64,000 bases of DNA from Candidatus Aenigmatarchaeota archaeon (lineage in GTDB: Archaea > Aenigmatarchaeota > Aenigmatarchaeia > CG10238-14 > SCSR01). The DNA lies in the NCBI GenBank assembly GCA_016181005.1, contig JACPAE010000004.1, positions 78,646 to 142,645 of the forward strand. Reading direction: 5' to 3'. The position numbers and the translations under genes were made by a program. Shown piece by piece: positions 4,613-38,503 of this stretch. Position 1 is the first letter of the stretch; every line of letters starts with the position of its first letter. Below the pieces are notes generated by a model. The model ran no database searches. It was given only the letters and a program-made list of their open reading frames with translations, and was not told the origin of the DNA.

Positions 4613-5386
4613 TCATTCCGGCACTAGAACGCCCACATACCAGATTACCAATATACCCAAGATTAGCAAGGCAAACTGCATCGCTGACTTGGTGACTTTC
4701 TTTTCCCTATGGGTTTCTGGCAGCAAGTCAGTGCTTGCTATGTAAATAAACCCGCCTGCCGCCAATGAAATCAATATGGAAGTCATGTTTTCGAACAAAG
4801 GAAGGTAGTAGAATCCGACTATAAATCCCAGCACGGCAGTCATTTGCGCGAACAGGCTGTACAGAATTATCTTGGCCCGCCTGAACCTCGCATGGAGAAG
4901 AATCGCAAACTCTCCGATTTCCTGCGGAACTTCATGGAACAGAACTGCAAGGGAAGTGGCAAGCCCGACTCTAAAGTCAATCAAAAATCCAGCAGCTATA
5001 ATCAAACCGTCCATGAAATTGTGCAGGGCATCCCCGAATGTTATCAAGTATCCTACAGGATGCGCCTTCTCGTCCGGATGGTGTTTGTTACGGTGCCATA
5101 TGTGCTCGACTGAATGATGATGGTACAAGAGCAGAGTCTTCTCAAGAAGGTAAAACAGCAAAATGCCTGCAAGAGTGTAGGTCAGGACTGTTTCCGCCTT
5201 GACAACTCCCAAAGCCTCAGGCAGCATATCCAGGAAAACAACGCCCAGCATCGCGCCTATAGCAAAGCTTATCATGTATTTTGAAACGAATTTCGCCCAT
5301 TTCTGCTTGTATATCAGCAACAGCCCGCCGCTCAAGCCAAGAAGGCTTATGAGAAAAACGATGCCAAGTGCAAGGAGGAAAACCAT
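4613..5386 (-). CDS. ZIP family metal transporter (ZupT-like)
   Basis: HNFMDG and HEVPQEIGEFAILL signature motifs; multiple TM helices. Confidence 0.75.
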   Translation of the reverse strand: MVFLLALGIVFLISLLGLSGGLLLIYKQKWAKFVSKYMISFAIGAMLGVVFLDMLPEALGVVKAETVLTYTLAGILLFYLLEKTLLLYHHHSVEHIWHRNKHHPDEKAHPVGYLITFGDALHNFMDGLIIAAGFLIDFRVGLATSLAVLFHEVPQEIGEFAILLHARFRRAKIILYSLFAQMTAVLGFIVGFYYLPLFENMTSILISLAAGGFIYIASTDLLPETHREKKVTKSAMQFALLILGILVIWYVGVLVPE

Positions 5387-5436
5387 ACAAATACATTAAA
5401 AATTCCCTTTTAAATAATAACTATCCAAGTGATTGT

Positions 5437-6204
5437 ATGGCAGCGAAGGATGGAAGGCCGAGGAACGGGGAATTGGTTCTGTGCACTGTCAGGAAGGTCA
5501 GCCAGTTCGCCGCATGGTGCGACGTCGAGGAATACCCCAACAGCGAAGGGATGATACACATCGCCGAAGTCGCGGGCAAATGGGTGCACGACATCAAAAA
5601 GTTCGTCAAGATGGGCAAGCAGTATGTGGTCAAGGTTGTCAGGGCAGACGGCAACACTATTCACTTGAGCCTGAAGAGGGTTTCAAAGAGCGAGGAAAGG
5701 GGCAAATGGAACGAGTTCAGGAAGGGGCAGAGGGCCGACAGCATCTTGAAAATTATTGGAAGAGAAATAAATTTGCCTATCGATCAAGTCTACGAGGATA
5801 TAAAGGCTCCGCTCCAGGAGAATTTCGGCGACCTGTACGCCGCTTTCGAGGAGATAAAGAAATCCCCGGACATTCTGACAGAGTTGAACATCCCGAAAAA
5901 ATGGCACGAGGGAATCGTTAAGGTTCTCAAAAAGGCGCTTGTTGACAAGGAGTATACTATAAAGGTGGAGATGGAGATGCAGAGCTACGACGGGGACGGG
6001 ATAAAAAGGATTAAATCGATATTAGAGAGCCTGGAAAAAGGCGGGATACATGTCGCATACGTATCCGCCCCGAAATACATGCTCGACATCAAAACAAAGA
6101 ATCCGAAGGCGGACAGGAGAAAGCTTGAGCAGCAGGTTGAAAAGGCCATGTCGGACGCTCAAAAGCTCCACCTTGATGCCAAATACAATTTTGTAGAAGG
6201 CTAG
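5437..6204 (+). CDS. eif2a: Translation initiation factor 2 alpha subunit (aIF2-alpha)
   Basis: N-terminal S1-like region (GELVLCTVRKV...GMIHIAEV); conserved aIF2alpha-Nop10-PAC2 gene order. Start chosen at the internal Met that matches family length. Confidence 0.8.
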   Translation: MAAKDGRPRNGELVLCTVRKVSQFAAWCDVEEYPNSEGMIHIAEVAGKWVHDIKKFVKMGKQYVVKVVRADGNTIHLSLKRVSKSEERGKWNEFRKGQRADSILKIIGREINLPIDQVYEDIKAPLQENFGDLYAAFEEIKKSPDILTELNIPKKWHEGIVKVLKKALVDKEYTIKVEMEMQSYDGDGIKRIKSILESLEKGGIHVAYVSAPKYMLDIKTKNPKADRRKLEQQVEKAMSDAQKLHLDAKYNFVEG

Positions 6205-6209
6205 ATTCG

Positions 6210-6380
6210 ATGAAACTGAGGAAATGCGCAAACTGCAATGCATACACTTTTAAGCAGACCTGCACAAAATGTAATAAAGAAACTATAAATCCTCACCCGC
6301 CCAAATATTCTCCTGAGGATGTTTACGGCGAATTTAGGAGAAGGATGAAGGCTGAATCAAATGTCGACAGAGATAATTGA
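6210..6380 (+). CDS. nop10: Ribosome biogenesis protein Nop10 (H/ACA RNP subunit)
   Basis: 56-aa ORF MKLRKCANCNAYTFKQTCTKCNKETINPHPPKYSPEDVYGEFRRRMKAE with a Cys4 zinc ribbon and PHPPKFSPEDxY-type Nop10 signature. It is below the ORF-track size cutoff and overlaps the next gene start by 20 nt. Confidence 0.8.
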   Translation: MKLRKCANCNAYTFKQTCTKCNKETINPHPPKYSPEDVYGEFRRRMKAESNVDRDN

Positions 6381-7158
6381 ACTGGAAAAACCAAAGCTGA
6401 AGAACCCCATTTTCGTAGAAGGGTTGCCAGGAATAGGCCATGTGGGCAGGATTGCGGCAAGCTATCTGGTCGAGGAGCTGAAGGCGAAAAAGTTTGCAGA
6501 GCTAATTTCCTCGCATTTTATGCATTACGTGCTTTTGAAGCAGTCGTCTTCGGTGCATCTGCTGAAGAACGAGTTCTACTACCTGAAGGCGAAGGGAAGC
6601 GGAAGGGACTTGATAATACTTGTAGGCGATTCGCAGAGCGTGGATCCAGAAGGACATTACGAGATTGCGAACAAAATTCTCGAGTATCTGAAAAAATACG
6701 GTGTCAAGGAAATGATAACTCTAGGAGGCTTGGGTATAGGCGAGGTAAAGGACAAGCCAAAAGTTGTTGGAGCTGTGAGCGACGAAGGGATGGGCAAAAA
6801 GTACAAGAGCTACGGGATCGATTTCAACACTGCAAGCAAAGTCGGAACGATTATAGGCGCATCAGGATTGTTGCTGGGTTTAGGCAAGTTGTACGGCATG
6901 AGAGGGTTGTGCTTGCTGGGCGAGACCACAGGATACCCGCTTCTGCCAGATCCTAAAGCTGCAGAAGAAGTGCTAAAGGTCTTGGCAAAGGTTCTGGGTT
7001 TGAAGATGGATACTACAAAGCTTGACAAGAAGATAAAGGAAATGGAAGAGTTCATCAAGAAGATGGAGGACATGCAGAGGAAGGTTATGGGCCAGATGAT
7101 GCAGCAGCAGATGCCGCAGAAAAAGGAAGGCAAGGAAGAACTGAGCTACATAGGATAA
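6361..7158 (+). CDS. PAC2 family protein (proteasome assembly chaperone-like)
   Basis: N-terminal PIFVEGLPGIGHVGRIAASYL motif; conserved neighbour of nop10 in archaea. Confidence 0.7.
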   Translation: MSTEIIELEKPKLKNPIFVEGLPGIGHVGRIAASYLVEELKAKKFAELISSHFMHYVLLKQSSSVHLLKNEFYYLKAKGSGRDLIILVGDSQSVDPEGHYEIANKILEYLKKYGVKEMITLGGLGIGEVKDKPKVVGAVSDEGMGKKYKSYGIDFNTASKVGTIIGASGLLLGLGKLYGMRGLCLLGETTGYPLLPDPKAAEEVLKVLAKVLGLKMDTTKLDKKIKEMEEFIKKMEDMQRKVMGQMMQQQMPQKKEGKEELSYIG

Positions 7159-13782: not shown

Positions 13783-15039
13783 TTATAAGCTTATGTCTGG
13801 TTCCTGCAAATGCTTTATCAGAGAATTCATAAATCTTGTGGCGTAAGCCCCGTCGACAATCCTGTGGTCAAACACCAGCGACAACGGCAGCACTTTCCTA
13901 ATCTCTACTTTCCCAGCGATTGCGAGAGGCTTGTCGTACATCCTTCCCACGCCAAGAATTGCGGCCTCCGGATAGTTGATTATGGGTGTGGCGAATGTCG
14001 CACCCAAGCTTCCGTAGTTGGTTATAGTGAAAGTGCCCCCCTTCAAGTCCTGCAAATCAATCTTCCTCTGTTTAGCCTTTTCTCCAAGCTCCTGAACCTC
14101 CTTTGCTATATCAAAAACATTCTTTATGTCAACGCCTTTAATGACAGGCACAAGAAGCCCCTCACCATCGACATCAACAGCGAATCCGAAGTTGTAATAT
14201 TTCTTTACGACAATCTCCTCCTCTTCTTCTAGGAGGCTGGAATTTAGCAGCGGAAACTCCTTCATTGCCGCCAGGCACGCCTTCATAATAAAAGGCATGT
14301 AAGTAAGGTGAATTCCCTGCTCCTTTGATTTAACCTTTTCTTTCTCTCTTAATTCAAACAGCTTGCTGACATCAGCTTCGTCCATGGCTGTCACATGCGG
14401 TATGTGCTTTACTGACTCTACCATGTGGGTTGCGATAACTTTCCTCAAGCCCCTCAGCGGAATTCTGTCGACATAGCCCCACATGTCGTATTTCTTCTTC
14501 ACAACCAGAGCCTTCTCTTCTTTAACCTCTTTTGTTCCCACAGCGCTTTTGACGTCTTCCTCTGTTATTCTTCCTTCTGGTCCTGTACCAGTGACTTTCG
14601 TTAGATCAACTCCCAATTCCTTAGCCAGATTTCTGACAGCAGGTGCGGCAAGCACTTTTTCACCGACTGCTTTAGGCGGAATTACAGGTCTTGGCTTAAC
14701 TTCCTCCTCATCAGGCGCCTCTTCAAGATAACCAACAGCGCCAGCAGCCTTCATGACAGGCCCTTTAATTTCCTGCCTGGATTCTGGGATATATTTTTCT
14801 CCCACTTCACCTATAACAAACAGAACCTGGCCGACTTTGACAGTTTCGCCCTCCTTGAAGTTAATCTTCAGCACAGCACCTGAATAAGGAGAAGGAATCT
14901 CTGCAACAGCCTTGTCAGTCTCGACCTCTCCGACAACTTGGTGCTCCTCTACCCTGTCGCCCTCCTTGATGAGCCATTTTACTATCTCCCCTTCTTCTAT
15001 GCCTTCGCCAATGTCGGGAAACTTGAACTCTTTCGGCAT
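13783..15039 (-). CDS. Dihydrolipoamide acyltransferase, E2 component of a 2-oxoacid dehydrogenase complex
   Basis: Lipoyl-lysine motif VETDKAVAEIPSP, peripheral subunit-binding domain, catalytic DHRIVDGA. Confidence 0.85.
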   Translation of the reverse strand: MPKEFKFPDIGEGIEEGEIVKWLIKEGDRVEEHQVVGEVETDKAVAEIPSPYSGAVLKINFKEGETVKVGQVLFVIGEVGEKYIPESRQEIKGPVMKAAGAVGYLEEAPDEEEVKPRPVIPPKAVGEKVLAAPAVRNLAKELGVDLTKVTGTGPEGRITEEDVKSAVGTKEVKEEKALVVKKKYDMWGYVDRIPLRGLRKVIATHMVESVKHIPHVTAMDEADVSKLFELREKEKVKSKEQGIHLTYMPFIMKACLAAMKEFPLLNSSLLEEEEEIVVKKYYNFGFAVDVDGEGLLVPVIKGVDIKNVFDIAKEVQELGEKAKQRKIDLQDLKGGTFTITNYGSLGATFATPIINYPEAAILGVGRMYDKPLAIAGKVEIRKVLPLSLVFDHRIVDGAYATRFMNSLIKHLQEPDISL

Positions 15040-15040
15040 T
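14992..15040. repeat. 49-bp direct repeat, copy 1 (covers the functional E2 start)
   Basis: ttcttctatgccttcgccaatgtcgggaaacttgaactctttcggcatt; matches 15535-15583 with one mismatch. Confidence 0.9.
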
Positions 15041-15048
15041 ATATCACA

Positions 15049-15300
15049 TCAATAATGAATTCTCCCCCTTACATCTAACTTAACAACTTCAATTACCCCT
15101 TTATCAAAATAAACATCTATTATAATTCTAAAATCACCCGTCCTAATCCTATAGGTTATTTCCCCAATCTTCTTTACATCCAAACTCTTAGGAAAGCCAG
15201 TTAAAGAATCTAGCTTATTCATTAACTTGTTTTGTAAATCTGAAGGATATTTAGTTATTTTTTTCTTAATTTTTTTAGGAATCACAACCAAAAAGGTCAT
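15049..15300 (-). CDS. RelE/ParE family type II toxin
   Basis: YRIRTGDFRIIIDVYFDKGVIEVVKLDVRGRIHY C-terminal RelE signature; 83 aa; 4-nt overlap with the upstream partner. Confidence 0.65.
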   Translation of the reverse strand: MTFLVVIPKKIKKKITKYPSDLQNKLMNKLDSLTGFPKSLDVKKIGEITYRIRTGDFRIIIDVYFDKGVIEVVKLDVRGRIHY

Positions 15301-15503
15301 TTTCGCAACTCTTTCTTTAGTTGTTCCAGTGTGACATATTGACCTTTCCTTATTTCTTCCCTTGACCTCCTTATTCCCTTCCAGTCTTTGTGTGTCAACT
15401 GATCTTCCGCTAGCATAGACTCGACCCTTATCAAATGCCTTTTAACATCCCTCAGTTCACTCAAAAACTGCTTCATTATGCCGAATTCTTTACCAAGCTT
15501 CAT
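15297..15503 (-). CDS. putative antitoxin partner of the RelE-like toxin
   Basis: 68-aa ORF overlapping the toxin start (ATGA); paralogous to the ORF at 46314-46520. Confidence 0.5.
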   Translation of the reverse strand: MKLGKEFGIMKQFLSELRDVKRHLIRVESMLAEDQLTHKDWKGIRRSREEIRKGQYVTLEQLKKELRK

Positions 15504-15534
15504 AATTAACTATTAGGCATATTATTTAAATAAT

Positions 15535-15583
15535 TTCTTCTATGCCTTCGCCAATGTCCGGAAACTTGAACTCTTTCGGCATT
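15535..15583. repeat. 49-bp direct repeat, copy 2 (remnant E2 start right after the E1-beta stop)
   Basis: ttcttctatgccttcgccaatgtccggaaacttgaactctttcggcatt; encodes a truncated MPKEFKFPDIGEGIEEII* remnant. Confidence 0.9.
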
Positions 15584-16561
15584 TTAAAAACTCATCACAT
15601 TTTCTATAGCTTTATTTATTCTTGTTGCATCAGGAATGTAATAGTTCTCCAGCTTTGGCAGCGGTACAGGAACATCATAACCAGTAACTCTCTGCACAGG
15701 CGCCTCTAAATTTAGTAAAGCTTTTTCATTTATCGTCGCAACCAATTCTGCACCATAACCACATGTCCTTGGCGCTTCCTGCACAACAACACACCTGCCA
15801 GTCTTCTTAACAGAGTCGATAAGAGTTTTCCTATCAACAGGATACAGTGTCAGCAAGTCAACAATCTCCACAGAATACTTTGACTGGGCAACAGCCTCAC
15901 GAACAACCTTCTGCATCGCACCCCAAGCAATAACAGTGATGTCACTCCCCTCCTGCACAACTTCGGCCTTGTTTAGCGGAATTGTATACTCTTCTTCAGG
16001 AACCTCTTCCTTGATTGCGCGGTAGACTCTTTTGGGTTCTAGGAAAACGACTGGATCAGGATCACGGATTGATGAAATCAACAATCCTTTTGCATTGTAA
16101 GGCCCCGATGGTGTAACAACTTTAATCCCGGGCATGTGCGTGAAGAATGCTTCCAATGATTCCGAATGATGTTCCAGTGCTCTGATTCCTCCACCGTGGG
16201 GAACTCGAAAAACTAGAGGCACGTGCCATTTTCCTTGAGACCTCTTCCTCATCCTGCCTGCATGATTGTAAAGCTGGTCGAGCATTGACATTGAAAAGCC
16301 GTCGAACTGAACTTCCGCTATAGGTTTCATTCCCGCAATAGCTAATCCAATCGAAGTGCCAATAATTCCAACTTCTGCCAGTGGAGTGTCAATAACCCTA
16401 TCATCGCCAAACTGTTGCCACAAGCCTTCTGTGACTCTGAAAACACCACCGTCTTTGCCGATGTCTTCTCCTAAAAGGATAACTGAGGGATATTTCTCCA
16501 TCTCCTGCTTTAGTGCAAGATTAATTGCTTGAACTAGGTTCATCTTCATAACATCACTCAA
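15584..16561 (-). CDS. 2-oxoacid dehydrogenase E1 component, beta subunit
   Basis: Transketolase-like C-terminal domain; 325 aa; 8-nt overlap with the E1-alpha gene. Confidence 0.85.
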   Translation of the reverse strand: MSDVMKMNLVQAINLALKQEMEKYPSVILLGEDIGKDGGVFRVTEGLWQQFGDDRVIDTPLAEVGIIGTSIGLAIAGMKPIAEVQFDGFSMSMLDQLYNHAGRMRKRSQGKWHVPLVFRVPHGGGIRALEHHSESLEAFFTHMPGIKVVTPSGPYNAKGLLISSIRDPDPVVFLEPKRVYRAIKEEVPEEEYTIPLNKAEVVQEGSDITVIAWGAMQKVVREAVAQSKYSVEIVDLLTLYPVDRKTLIDSVKKTGRCVVVQEAPRTCGYGAELVATINEKALLNLEAPVQRVTGYDVPVPLPKLENYYIPDATRINKAIENVMSF

Positions 16562-17612
16562 AATCTTTCTTCTGTTCTTCTAATTCTTCGGGCAACTCGG
16601 CATAAACGTCTTCAAACATGTCCGTAGGCTTTGGCGGTTCAACAGCTTCAAACTTTTTCACAGCTTCAGCAACTTTTACCTTCGCCTTTTCCCAAACTCC
16701 CTTTTCATAATTTTCATTCCAAATTCCTTCACTCTCCATATACTTTCTCAGTCTTTCGACAGGGTCCTTCCTCTTCCACATTTCGACTTCAGCAGGGTCC
16801 CGATACTTCTTCCAGTCATCAGCAGTCGTGTGATTTTCCATCCTGTAGGTATAGCACTCGATGAACGTAGGACCCTTGCCTGCTCTTGCCTTGTCAGCGG
16901 CGTCCTTCGTAACTTTGTAAACTGCAAAAACGTCATTGCCGTCAACAAGAACGCCTTCAAAACCATATGAAAATGCCTTTTCAGCCAATGTATCGCTCGC
17001 GCTCTGTCTCTTGCGGGGGACTGAAATCGCCCACTGGTTGTTCTGGCAAATAAAAATACATGGAATCTTGAAAACACCGGCGAAATTCATCCCTTCGTGG
17101 AAGTCACCCTTGCTTGTCGCACCGTCGCCAAAATAAACAACAGCAACAGATTTTTTCCCCTGAAGCTTGCTGGCCCATGCAAGCCCGACAGCATGCGGTA
17201 TTTGCGTCCCTACAGGAACCGCGACAGGCAGCGCATTCATATCCTCAGGAATTGTCATTCCCCTCTCGTCGCCGGCCCAATACTGGTAAAGGGCGTCCAT
17301 CGGGAAGCCGAGGGTTATGAATACTCCATTTTCCCTGAATGACGGGGCAAACCAGTCCTCCTTGTGCATAGCAAGCGCAGAACCAATCTGGGAAGCTTCT
17401 TGTCCTAGCAGCGAAGCATATGTAAGCATTCTCCCTTCTCTCTGCAGCTTCAATGCAACATCGTCAAACGCGCGCGACAAAACCATGTATTCGTACATTG
17501 CCTTAATTTCATCGTTCGTGAGCTTCGGCATGTCCCTTGTGTTTACTATCTTGCCTTCTTCGTTGAGAATCTGGAACATTTCCATTTTCATATACTTGAA
17601 TTTTACATCCAA
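16554..17612 (-). CDS. 2-oxoacid dehydrogenase E1 component, alpha subunit (TPP-binding)
   Basis: TPP-binding GDG..N motif (YFGDGATSKGDFHEGMNFA); 352 aa. Confidence 0.85.
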   Translation of the reverse strand: MDVKFKYMKMEMFQILNEEGKIVNTRDMPKLTNDEIKAMYEYMVLSRAFDDVALKLQREGRMLTYASLLGQEASQIGSALAMHKEDWFAPSFRENGVFITLGFPMDALYQYWAGDERGMTIPEDMNALPVAVPVGTQIPHAVGLAWASKLQGKKSVAVVYFGDGATSKGDFHEGMNFAGVFKIPCIFICQNNQWAISVPRKRQSASDTLAEKAFSYGFEGVLVDGNDVFAVYKVTKDAADKARAGKGPTFIECYTYRMENHTTADDWKKYRDPAEVEMWKRKDPVERLRKYMESEGIWNENYEKGVWEKAKVKVAEAVKKFEAVEPPKPTDMFEDVYAELPEELEEQKKDFE

Positions 17613-36447: not shown

Positions 36448-37152
36448 ATGCTCTATTTAACTATGACAACAACCAGCCAGCTATACCTGCCAATAAAAGG
36501 CATGCAATACTCAGTTATACCGGAAGTGTCTCTTCTTGGAAAAGACTTGTGGGAAGCGCAATTATACGCCCAGGATAATGGACTGGTAGTCTTGTCTTCT
36601 CCTGACATAAACAGGCTGGCAAGAGCCGTAAAGGGCGACAATCCAGACAGGCAATTCCTAAGATACGCAAGGGAACAGGCTGAAAAGCAAGGAACTTCAT
36701 TAAACGACAACGACGCAAAAGACGGATATAAACGGCTTCATGACGGATTATGGAAACAATACGTTGCTATAGCAAGGGAAATTCTTGTATGGACAAGAGA
36801 CGCACAACCTATTAATCACCCCATGATTGTTTTGAAAGATATGCCTGTAACGTCCCATCTAATAACGGACTATAGAGTTGAAAAGCAGGGCGACGGCTAT
36901 AGAATAGTCGAAGCTGTTGTAACGTCAGCCAACTGGATGAAAGAGGACGGGGCAATAACTCCTGAAATGGCACAATTGTTAGGCGCCGAACCCAATACAC
37001 ATGTCTGGACAAATCCAAATCCTGATTATGAAAATGGACTGAGGGCTCTCGGGTGGGACTTCAGGGGCCGTGAGAGGCCGTACCTGGTCTCGGACTGGGA
37101 GCCTTGGGACAGGAACTCCTATGGGGGTTCGCTTTTGGGTAGAAGGCTGTAA
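36448..37152 (+). CDS. DGR target (variable) protein; VR occupies the last 33 or so codons
   Basis: 3' end (37045-37143) matches the template repeat at all non-adenine positions; higher GC than neighbouring genes. Confidence 0.75.
   Translation: MLYLTMTTTSQLYLPIKGMQYSVIPEVSLLGKDLWEAQLYAQDNGLVVLSSPDINRLARAVKGDNPDRQFLRYAREQAEKQGTSLNDNDAKDGYKRLHDGLWKQYVAIAREILVWTRDAQPINHPMIVLKDMPVTSHLITDYRVEKQGDGYRIVEAVVTSANWMKEDGAITPEMAQLLGAEPNTHVWTNPNPDYENGLRALGWDFRGRERPYLVSDWEPWDRNSYGGSLLGRRL
37045..37143 (+). repeat. DGR variable repeat (VR)
   Basis: Aligns to TR 37389-37517; all 16 internal mismatches fall where TR has A. TR AAC/AAT codons correspond to GAC/TAC/GTC/TAT/GGT in VR. Confidence 0.8.
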
Positions 37153-37244
37153 GCTGTAAATGAAACATTAACAATTAGATTTATTCTATAAATCATAATT
37201 CTATATTCCTGGGCTATTGCTGGACAATGATGAAGGCAATGTCT

Positions 37245-37342
37245 GGGCTACACGCCTGTCCATAGCGCATTAGGGCTTTTTCCGTTTGGCCATGAAATAC
37301 AGAGGCGACAGATAGTAGCTATGACGGATGACATGACTAGTG
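37245..37342. repeat. Conserved ~98-nt element, copy A (between VR and TR); possible structured ncRNA or cis element
   Basis: About 95% identical to 47348-47446 (4 differences counted by eye). Confidence 0.6.
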
Positions 37343-37388
37343 CGAAACCTGAAGCTTCAGTGAAAACTTGGTGGATGGGCTAAGATAA

Positions 37389-37517
37389 GCTCTCAGGTGG
37401 AACTTCAGGGACCGTGAGAATATGTATCACGAAAGGCCGAACCTGAACTCGAACAGGGAGCCTTGGAACAGGAAATCCAACGACCTGATCTCCAATAGGG
37501 GTTCGCTTTTGAATAAC
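37389..37517 (+). repeat. DGR template repeat (TR)
   Basis: Intergenic, ends 20 nt upstream of the RT start. Rich in AAC/AAT codons in the VR frame. Carries two in-frame 15-nt segments absent from VR. Confidence 0.8.
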
Positions 37518-37537
37518 CCAGACCGCCCAGGATTTTT

Positions 37538-38503
37538 ATGAAGACGTACAATAAAATCTTTAACAAACTATGCTCCTTAGAGAATCTTAAACTGGCATTC
37601 AAAAAAGCCAAGAAAGGCAAAAGCAAGAAATGGTACGTAAAGGAATTTGAATGCAATTTGGATAATGAATTGACGAAATTAAAAATGGAACTGGATAATC
37701 AAACCTACAGACCACAGACATTAAAGAGATTCATAGTAAGAGATCCGAAAACAAGGGTCGTTCACGCATCAGCTTTCAGAGACAGAGTAGTTCATCATGC
37801 TATATGCAACATAATAGAACCTGTATTCGAGAAGATTTTCATTAATGACAGCTATGCCAACAGGAAGAAAAAAGGAACTCTTTCGGGATTAAATAGATTC
37901 GACAAATTCAAACATAAAGTTACTAGAAATCGTGAGTTATTAAGGAGTGCTAAAGACGGCAATATGACTGTAGGTTATGCCCTAAAAGCAGATATAAGGC
38001 ATTATTTTGATACTGTTGATTTGGAAATCCTAATGGAAATCATCCAAAAGAAGATAATCGACAGCAAAGTCCTGCGGTTAATAAAAGCAATTCTGGACAA
38101 CCATGATTTCAAAACTAAAGGAAAGGGAATGCCTCTTGGAAATTTAACGAGCCAGTTTTTCGCTAATGTCTATCTTAATGAGTTGGATTATTACGTGAAG
38201 CACAAACTCAAGGTAAAATATTATATTCGATATGTGGATGATTTTGTTATTCTGCACAGGTCTAAAGAAAAACTAGCGCTGTACAGGTGGATGATAGACA
38301 ACTTTCTAAAGCAGAGACTTAAGCTCGAATTGCATCCTGAGAAATCGAAAATCGTCCCCTTACATTATGGCGTAAAGTTACTAGGTTTTCGTGTGTTCTA
38401 CTACTATAAGCTACCACGGAAAAGCAATCTAAGGATTTTTGAAAAGAAATTAAGTATCTATACATTGACACCCAGAGAGAGAGAGAGCATATTGAAAAAC
38501 TGA
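37538..38503 (+). CDS. DGR reverse transcriptase
   Basis: RT motifs including YVDDFVIL (YxDD) and the DGR-specific motif-4 variant PLGNLTSQ (cf. IGNLTSQ of Bordetella Brt); 321 aa without a maturase or endonuclease domain. Confidence 0.85.
   Translation: MKTYNKIFNKLCSLENLKLAFKKAKKGKSKKWYVKEFECNLDNELTKLKMELDNQTYRPQTLKRFIVRDPKTRVVHASAFRDRVVHHAICNIIEPVFEKIFINDSYANRKKKGTLSGLNRFDKFKHKVTRNRELLRSAKDGNMTVGYALKADIRHYFDTVDLEILMEIIQKKIIDSKVLRLIKAILDNHDFKTKGKGMPLGNLTSQFFANVYLNELDYYVKHKLKVKYYIRYVDDFVILHRSKEKLALYRWMIDNFLKQRLKLELHPEKSKIVPLHYGVKLLGFRVFYYYKLPRKSNLRIFEKKLSIYTLTPRERESILKN

Follow-up and report, generated by a model that had tools for sequence, protein, structure and literature searches.

A small toxin-antitoxin (TA) cassette, bracketed by two direct copies of the start of the E2 gene, separates the genes for E1-beta and E2 of a 2-oxoacid dehydrogenase operon in Candidatus Aenigmarchaeota (DPANN) from groundwater. 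The DNA analyzed here is a 64-kb stretch, referred to as the window, and all genes of the locus are on its minus strand. The explanation that we favor overall, with moderate confidence, is that the locus holds an old, repeat-bracketed minicassette of the archaeal RelE (aRelE) kind, that its flanking repeats have been homogenized by gene conversion, and that its origin was anchored in E2. A preliminary description of the same DNA had proposed that a RelE-type cassette was inserted into the E1-beta/E2 junction with a duplication of the target. The toxin and the insertion stand, and the duplication appears to be much older than its near-identical copies suggest.

Identity of the toxin-antitoxin cassette

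The cassette occupies the 494 bp between the repeats (15041-15534) and consists of a promoter, a putative antitoxin gene, a toxin gene and a 9-nt spacer; the two TA genes are the only genes that it contains. The preliminary description had placed an overlapping pair of open reading frames (ORFs) in about 494 bp, and the length is exactly that, with the ORFs at 15297-15503 and 15049-15300 and an overlap of 4 nt. NCBI lists the toxin and the antitoxin of the Ca. Aenigmarchaeota archaeon as hypothetical proteins HYT70_04415 and HYT70_04420. As judged from the sequence, the locus is an intact, self-promoted type II TA cassette of the archaeal RelE family: the toxin has a linked upstream partner, the pair is conserved together in every context found, the cassette has a TATA element of its own, and the toxin is under purifying selection.

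Membership of the RelE family was judged by sequence homology, fold and a catalytic C-terminal arginine (R85 in aRelE, R81 in E. coli RelE), and the 83-residue toxin (15049-15300, minus strand) displays all three, in the form seen in the archaeal aRelE subgroup. Searched alone against Pfam PF05016 (ParE_toxin), the toxin scores 18.9 bits, under the 23-bit cut-off, and 9 of its 10 nearest profile relatives pass. A profile of 14 toxin homologs matches aRelE of P. horikoshii over its full length (1wmi_A, E = 5.4e-7), while the toxin-family profile reaches E = 0.069 with RelE3 of M. jannaschii; an exhaustive profile search with the toxin family found 705 cluster representatives of 80-90 aa. An AlphaFold2 model of the toxin, with a predicted local distance difference test (pLDDT) score of 84.6, has strands (E) and helices (H) in the order E-H-H-E-E-E-E. 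Its best Foldseek match is 1wmi_A (template modeling [TM] score 0.80, E = 1.6e-6, 32% identity), followed by structures of RelE, YoeB and HigB. Toxin R78, in the motif VRGRIHY, aligns with R85 of aRelE (PRGRAY), which has been named as the catalytic residue (PMC3581365), and R78, G79 and R80 are invariant in the 14 homologs. The toxin has a ratio of nonsynonymous to synonymous substitution rates (dN/dS) of 0.04-0.09, and the gene is therefore maintained by selection. RelE toxins cleave mRNA on the ribosome and are neutralized by their antitoxins; by analogy with the family, the toxin described here would cleave ribosome-bound mRNA and its partner would neutralize it.

The partner is a charged protein of 68 aa (15297-15503, minus strand) that is predicted to be helical and is always encoded upstream of the toxin. 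We regard it as the putative antitoxin on account of this position, because the two genes overlap by 4 nt and because the two are strictly found together. The supposition that it would belong to an antitoxin family was not borne out: the sequence has no match in Pfam, NCBIfam or the PDB (the best PDB profile match, at E = 0.4, is to unrelated helical proteins), and a test for homology with RelB/aRelB-type antitoxins was negative. Its family is narrow and conserved, with eight homologs that are all annotated as hypothetical.

Archaeal promoter architecture suggests that the cassette has its own promoter. A TATA box, TTTAAATA (15523-15530, minus strand), starts 27 nt upstream of the antitoxin ATG, and a TATA-like element is found at the same distance from the antitoxin start in every copy of the cassette, in whatever context the copy lies. 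The spacing suggests a leaderless or near-leaderless transcript. The GC content of the cassette is 32.6% as compared with 42.2% for the window, which puts it in the lowest 4.6% of 494-nt windows.

An old insertion into a tight gene junction

A repeat search of the window finds a 52-nt direct repeat at 14992-15043 and 15535-15586 with 96% identity. Its 49-nt core (14992-15040 and 15535-15583) has the single mismatch that had been described, G at 15016 versus C at 15559; on the coding strand the two codons are CCC and CCG, both for proline, and the difference is synonymous. The core had been taken for the first 49 nt of the E2 gene, and here the duplication is real but the boundary needs correction, in that the core comprises 48 coding nt of E2 and 1 nt upstream of it. 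A 23-mer of the repeat occurs exactly twice in the window, with zero occurrences expected from 100 shuffles. No local direct repeat in the 64 kb is longer, and only one other family reaches at least 26 nt.

The right (downstream) copy, at 14992-15043 on the minus strand, is the start of the functional E2 gene. The left (upstream) copy, at 15535-15586 on the same strand, contains the native junction of E1-beta stop and E2 start together with E2 codons 1-16. As the preliminary description had it, the ATG of the left copy (15582-15580) lies 1 nt past the E1-beta stop codon and opens a remnant ORF of 18 codons, MPKEFKFPDIGEGIEEII followed by a stop (15526-15582, minus strand). The equivalent remnant ORFs in two homologous loci, L009 and L109, have 19 codons (loci other than the window are given L numbers throughout). 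The layout of the left junction, TAA-A-ATG, matches that of relatives with an empty site (L006, L020 and L024). Because it reproduces this native tight junction, the left copy represents the resident start of E2, and what follows it is the cassette together with the second start. Independent assemblies of six sequencing runs (L001-L005 and L108) all show this arrangement without a base of difference, and no empty allele was seen in the source population, in which each contig with an identical E2 or toxin has the full arrangement.

Close relatives have a tight E1-beta/E2 junction, and the cassette is therefore an insertion. In L006, whose E1-beta is 91% identical, in L020 and L024, and in most of the more distant loci, the E1-beta stop codon is followed after 0-25 nt by the E2 ATG, and neither the cassette nor the second repeat is present. 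An insertion into a coupled junction, as first proposed, agrees with these empty sites. The expectation that related genomes would lack the cassette and one repeat holds for these loci but not for L009 and L109 (the latter a contig of 583 bp that is close to L009), in which the E2 start is duplicated as well. An ancestral state of the duplicated arrangement, which the preliminary description had considered as evidence against itself, is to that extent partly upheld, since L009 and L109 share both the duplication and its end point.

The duplication ends at the same base, directly after ATAGAAGAA, in the window, L009 and L109, and in all three the left junction joins E2 nt 48 to the cassette at 31-33 nt upstream of the antitoxin ATG. 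In L009, E1-beta is set apart from the left copy by another 3.1 kb that holds unrelated genes. The cassette is found 9-14 nt upstream of E2, with a homologous spacer, in four diverged lineages (the window, L009, L086/L087 and L088-L090). L086 and L088 share the right junction of cassette and E2 and lack the left repeat. In L088 the cassette is wedged, with no duplication, between the E2 ATG and the native E2 promoter region, which can be aligned with that of L007, L012 and L013, and L086 has yet another left flank. A candidate for a degenerate left copy in L086 (4485-4507, score 12.5) did not rise above background and was not used. A neighbor-joining tree of antitoxin plus toxin DNA separates E2-linked from tRNA-linked cassettes with 100% bootstrap support, and the association of cassette and E2 therefore arose once. 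These comparisons indicate that the insertion is old and that the duplication is ancestral to a subclade.

In L086 (MAG JACPJU, 5265-6418; MAG, metagenome-assembled genome), the E2 sequence after the cassette matches in two pieces that are in different frames, and no gene has been called; it may be a pseudogene or reflect a sequencing error.

Probable homogenization of the repeats

A single base separates the left from the right copy in the window, and the same is true of L009. When these two genomes are compared with each other, the repeats differ by 3-5 substitutions and by an indel of one CCG codon, and these differences are shared by both copies of each genome. The cassette DNA of the window and that of L009 are 74% identical, and the synonymous divergence (dS) of the toxin between lineages ranges from 0.9 to more than 2 (saturated; the value for the window versus L009 was not computable). 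That the repeats are near-identical within genomes, though the synonymous sites of the toxin are saturated between lineages, argues for gene conversion. The variable sites among the three left copies lead to the same reading: all six fall on the third position of E2 codons, none changes the amino acid, and a non-coding remnant should not vary only at synonymous sites. The chance of six third-position sites out of six, as a simple probability, is (1/3)^6, about 0.001. Together these observations are a strong indication, though not proof, that the repeats are kept alike by continuing gene conversion from the selected E2 copy. The notion of a fresh target duplication is thereby lost, for the duplication is ancestral to a subclade and the repeats seem young only through homogenization within genomes.

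Sister cassettes at tRNA genes

The other cassettes of Aenigmarchaeota type, which are 72-86% identical, each lie beside a tRNA gene or a tRNA remnant. They are found beside ParA genes (L091-L093), between an M50 peptidase gene and tRNA-Leu(CAG) (L097-L100), downstream of NifU (L101-L103 and L105) and in further contexts (L104 and L110). At these sites a tRNA gene or remnant on the minus strand comes after the toxin, with its 3' end 3-47 nt away, and a copy of 28-45 nt of the tRNA 3' end, variably decayed, is located 31-47 nt upstream of the antitoxin ATG. The geometry is the same as at E2, and the cassette behaves as a discrete unit of about 0.5 kb, with a left boundary that varies from context to context by about 15 nt. 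MAG CAYITO has the cassette at tRNA-Leu (L097), and its own E1-beta/E2 gap (L016) is empty and 54 nt long; at least one change of site must therefore have taken place.

Signs of a dedicated mobility system were sought around the copies. No integrase, transposase or recombinase was found by Pfam match among the called genes within 4-6 kb of any copy examined. Terminal inverted repeats are likewise lacking from the window cassette (score 8.0 versus a null mean of 7.4, p = 0.38), and the idea of a viral or plasmid vector was rejected, as no IMG/VR contig encodes the toxin. A test for attachment sites (attL/attR) gave a divided result, with repeats that duplicate a target gene end and empty sites in relatives, and with neither an adjacent integrase nor a shared core site. 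Sequence inspection found no conserved dyad-symmetric core in the E2 repeat across the copies of the window, L009 and L109. The idea that the E2 start is a pseudo-attachment site resembling a tRNA 3' end was rejected: by eye the two share ATGC, TTCxA and CGAAGGCA, and alignments scored as did shuffled sequences (p = 0.10-0.93). An integron gene cassette was also rejected, since the cassette ends have no inverted repeat and only 9 nt lie between the toxin stop codon and E2.

The tRNA sites include some further arrangements. In L101 (4285-4820), L102 (1315-1862) and L105 (3758-4733), a ParE toxin gene and a MazE-type antitoxin gene follow directly after the RelE cassette on the opposite strand, and this pair sits at a 14-nt tRNA remnant. 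The RelE cassette of L105 is degraded into fragments of 45 and 53 aa, with the ParE/MazE pair intact. About 0.8 kb downstream of the cassette, L091 has a gene for a 355-aa Cas12f1-like/TnpB protein (6069-7136) that is absent from the near-identical L092, which suggests an insertion-sequence polymorphism. Several tRNAs of the related loci were detected by Rfam only and are 96-120 nt long, which suggests introns; the 64-kb window itself has no tRNA gene that ARAGORN or Rfam detects.

A possible mechanism of arrival and persistence

By what mechanism did the cassette come to lie between two copies of the E2 start? For this step taken on its own we prefer one-sided homologous recombination, a choice that we hold only tentatively. 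The donor DNA would already have had the cassette adjoining E2. One crossover would have been homologous, inside E2 (or, at the other sites, the tRNA), and the second would have been an illegitimate joint that connected E2 nt 48 to the cassette promoter. The duplication would then be the likely product of E2-anchored recombination, its length set by where the illegitimate joint fell, and a dedicated transposase was probably not involved. Such a process would yield one conserved right junction and several left junctions. Given the sister cassettes at tRNA 3' ends, conserved gene ends may be the usual landing places.

Once in place, the repeats would be kept near-identical by recurrent gene conversion from the selected E2 copy, and homologous recombination between repeats would account for their homogenization under either mobility model. 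A crossover between the repeats could also delete the cassette. Such deletions are probably counter-selected, because pop-out would remove the antitoxin gene and free the toxin (addiction), and this would explain why the cassette persists.

Several points weigh against these proposals. All genomes compared are MAGs, and the junction sample stayed small: a metagenome scan with the toxin profile returned only three loci, all of which were already known or duplicates. The gene-conversion argument relies on three left copies, two complete pairs and few sites, and the neighbor-joining tree covers 458 nt and leaves the inner branching of the E2 group unsettled. The repeats at tRNA sites are visibly decaying (3 mismatches in 28 nt in L097), whereas the E2 repeats are cleaner. 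Finally, the 3' ends of tRNA genes are classic targets of integrases. A recombinase acting in trans is a serious alternative because of these tRNA targets and because the repeats of 28-49 nt fall in the size range of archaeal attachment (att) sites, which is 29-69 bp (PMC6563490).

According to this alternative, the cassette is a non-autonomous integrative element, its repeats are attL and attR, and a tyrosine recombinase supplied in trans recombines a short site on the circular cassette with the matching end of a conserved gene (the tRNA 3' end or the E2 5' end), in a manner comparable to CIMEs (cis-mobilizable elements), Xer-dependent dif modules or integron cassettes. We consider it less likely than one-sided recombination, though far from negligible. 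Besides the repeat lengths, it would account for the duplicated tRNA fragments of 28-45 nt at the sister sites, for the ParE/MazE pair that has accreted in L101, L102 and L105 at that very tRNA remnant, and for the geometry that the E2 and tRNA targets have in common (repeat, 31-47 nt, antitoxin, toxin, 3-14 nt, repeat). It would have to accommodate, however, the lack of an integrase within 4-6 kb of any copy, a cassette with almost no space for the arm sites of a recombinase, an E2 repeat with no conserved dyad core and no above-chance similarity to tRNA repeats, and a left boundary that shifts by up to about 15 nt between contexts. L086 and L088, which share the right junction without having the left repeat, are also at odds with a pair of attachment sites and are what one-sided recombination would produce.

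Another possibility is that the left copy has a function of its own, as a leader peptide coupled to E1-beta, as an operator or promoter of the cassette or as a structured RNA, and that it is kept by selection rather than by conversion. In keeping with this, all variation in the left copy is synonymous, the mini-ORF is intact in three lineages, and a perfect 7-bp inverted repeat (AGGCATA...TATGCCT) straddles the TATA box of the window with one arm in the repeat. That inverted repeat is absent from L009, however, and selection for a peptide leaves unexplained why synonymous codons and a codon indel are shared by the two copies within genomes. Moreover, the left copy is 3.1 kb from E1-beta in L009 and L109, so that coupling is not conserved; L086 and L088 retain the cassette without a left copy; and neither the repeats nor their surroundings gave evidence of a structured RNA (z-scores of -0.55, +1.17 and +1.07). 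A function for the left copy as the cause of its conservation is thus improbable.

Still less probable is a recent, transposition-like insertion in which staggered cuts 49 nt apart were filled in to leave a target-site duplication, as the preliminary description would imply. The copies are near-identical (1 mismatch in 49), the junction is tight and empty in the relative with the closest E1-beta, and the GC content of the cassette is atypical for the window, all of which fit a recent event. L009 and L109, however, have the same duplication and the same junctions, with cassettes that differ in about 26% of their DNA and synonymous sites that are saturated. Known prokaryotic transposases make duplications of about 2-15 bp, far shorter than 49 nt. 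With this length, no terminal inverted repeats and no transposase, a DNA transposon or insertion sequence was rejected, and a target duplication of the transposase type is unlikely. An assembly artefact (a chimeric join or a collapsed repeat) deserves a thought for an uncultured MAG source, since short repeats can mislead assemblers, but it is hardly credible given the identical structure in the assemblies of six runs and in the NCBI MAG, homologous structures in the MAGs of other studies, and a mismatch that breaks the repeat into exact stretches below the k-mer length of assemblers.

One-sided recombination anchored in E2, the mechanism preferred here, invites a broader conjecture, which we regard as speculative and rather unlikely to hold in full: TA pairs of about 0.5 kb may constitute a distinct class of integrase-free mobile modules in DPANN archaea that travel between genomes with the end of a highly conserved gene (the tRNA 3' end or the lipoyl-domain 5' end of E2) as a homology anchor. 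Each arrival would make a duplication of about 30-50 nt, conversion would preserve it, and the toxin would penalize deletion. If true, this would be a concrete route for the spread and persistence of chromosomal TA modules that themselves encode no mobility functions, and it might explain why unrelated TA pairs recur in the E1-beta/E2 gaps of DPANN archaea.

Comparison with known systems

The components of the locus are of known kinds, namely a RelE-type TA pair and duplications of the target end like those of integrated elements. The closest counterpart of the pair is aRelE-aRelB of P. horikoshii (PHS013/PHS014, PDB 1WMI). Beyond the similarity of the toxins (83 versus 90 aa, with the identity and TM score given above), the C-terminal RGR..Y motif with its catalytic arginine is conserved, and in both systems the small upstream partner gene has no recognized DNA-binding domain; the DNA-binding fold of aRelB is listed as unknown in a review (PMC4803016). 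The antitoxin described here, however, has no detectable similarity to aRelB or to any solved protein, and the subfamily is narrow, forming a single cluster at 50% identity with all copies in Aenigmarchaeota-type contigs.

With archaeal elements integrated at tRNA att sites and cis-mobilizable elements (CIMEs), the cassette has in common direct repeats of 28-52 nt that duplicate a conserved gene end and leave the target gene intact, empty sites in related genomes, and the tandem accretion of a second cassette at one site. It differs from them in its size of about 0.5 kb, with no integrase and hardly any room for arm sites, and in its left boundary, which varies between contexts. The E2 repeats, moreover, would be kept identical by gene conversion instead of decaying. 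One of its targets is the 5' end of a protein gene, whereas the integrations into protein genes reported in an archaeal survey were all 3'-distal (PMC6563490).

Small TA units that have their own promoter, no recombinase of their own and several contexts are familiar from bacteria. TA cassettes of chromosomal integrons are small modules without their own recombinase that have short recombination sites and occur in several contexts. The Xer-dependent dif modules of Acinetobacter plasmids are small as well and often consist of one TA pair with its own promoter (PMC6449649, PMC13141974). These systems have defined sites, however (28-bp pdif in inverted orientation, or attC), whereas the repeats found here are direct copies of the adjoining end of the target gene and have no motif in common.

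Homology-facilitated illegitimate recombination, in which one homologous anchor is combined with one illegitimate joint, is known from naturally transformable bacteria. It would account for the shared right junction, the varied left junctions and the length of the duplication. So far as we know, no DPANN archaeon has been shown to carry it out. The anchors in the present case, the E2 5' region and the tRNA, would be short, and the comparisons would point to the process only indirectly.

What sets the locus apart is the combination of a minimal unit without an integrase, a target at the 5' end of a protein gene, long-term homogenization of the repeats and a gap that holds TA genes recurrently. 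Chromosomal TA pairs are called mobile, yet it is seldom possible to see how they move. The present cassette family can be traced at landing sites of two types, the 3' ends of tRNA genes and the 5' end of a protein gene, with both cassette ends defined to within a few bases, empty sites in relatives and a signature of long-term conversion in the repeats. The locus is not a new kind of system, but it illustrates how selfish TA pairs lodge and persist. If the pattern holds in more genomes, it will become testable whether such pairs spread by homology anchoring or by a borrowed recombinase, and whether addiction protects a repeat-flanked insert from deletion.

The host operon and the E1-beta/E2 gap in relatives

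The operon is a standard lipoate-dependent set of 2-oxoacid dehydrogenase genes for E1-alpha, E1-beta and E2. E1-alpha (16554-17612, minus strand) matches Pfam E1_dh with E = 6.9e-87, and E1-beta (15584-16561, minus strand; stop codon TAA at 15586-15584) matches Transket_pyr and Transketolase_C and is 85-91% identical to homologs from groundwater Candidatus Aenigmarchaeota MAGs. E2, the dihydrolipoamide acyltransferase (13783-15039, minus strand), is intact, with full-length Pfam domains Biotin_lipoyl, E3_binding and 2-oxoacid_dh. From 5' to 3' on the minus strand, the order is E1-alpha, E1-beta, the 18-codon ORF, the 68-aa ORF, the 83-aa ORF and E2. Two lipoate ligase-like genes of the LplA/B family and a radical-SAM gene, which probably encodes lipoyl synthase, lie upstream of the operon.

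The preliminary description had considered that the insertion might disturb translational coupling of E1-beta and E2. Among loci in which the two genes are co-oriented, more than 300 nt separate them in 9 of the 12 closest relatives as compared with 6 of 54 others, and coupling is evidently not essential in this clade. Ribosomes that leave E1-beta in the window would begin the 18-codon ORF as a decoy. For E2, whose ATG is 9 nt past the toxin stop codon, transcription probably reads through from the promoters of the operon and of the cassette, and translation probably re-initiates after the toxin. A tight E1-beta/E2 junction can thus stay split for long periods in DPANN archaea, with E2 remaining intact.

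The E1-beta/E2 gaps of other DPANN-type loci contain unrelated TA or toxin-like genes. They include MazE and PemK genes that overlap the E2 start (L057, 2602-3235), a PIN protein (L029, 6064-6681), a 392-aa ORF with DUF4411 (L023, 6389-8067), a Fic protein (L022, 6313-7188) and a weakly HicB-like ORF (L034, 6657-6893). Because of these unrelated genes and the frequency of long gaps in the closest relatives, the junction looks like a recurrent landing place for TA-type genes. No duplication of the E2 start was found beside the gap genes of these five loci.

Many Aenigmarchaeota relatives have a conserved ORF of 68-72 aa on the opposite strand of the gap. It is beside E2 in L007 (6848-7057), L012 (6904-7113) and L013 (7438-7647), beside E1-beta in L018 (1764-1970) and L022 (5972-6190), and just upstream of the TA cassette in L086 (4211-4423) and L088 (803-1012). 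The ORF has no Pfam match, and its sole PDB profile match is a weak one to Cas2 (7kft_B, E = 0.54). Between this ORF and the native region upstream of E2, a palindrome, ATGTNANACGTNTNACAT, is present with compensating changes in L007, L012, L013 and L088 and looks like an operator.

Five loci (L020, L021, L023, L069 and L079) are labeled as Saccharibacteria, "bacterium" or Planctomycetes. Their E1-beta genes are 65-73% identical to the Aenigmarchaeota gene and their neighboring genes are of archaeal type; they may be mis-binned contigs in public MAGs.

Elsewhere in the window, a retroelement at 36448-38503 looks like a diversity-generating one. It includes a reverse transcriptase gene (37538-38503; Pfam RVT_1, E = 1.1e-22), an Rfam RT-16 RNA (37208-37388, 89.5 bits) and a 30-nt direct repeat (37108-37137 and 37482-37511, 83% identity), the first copy of which lies at the 3' end of a 234-aa ORF (36448-37152) that has no Pfam match.

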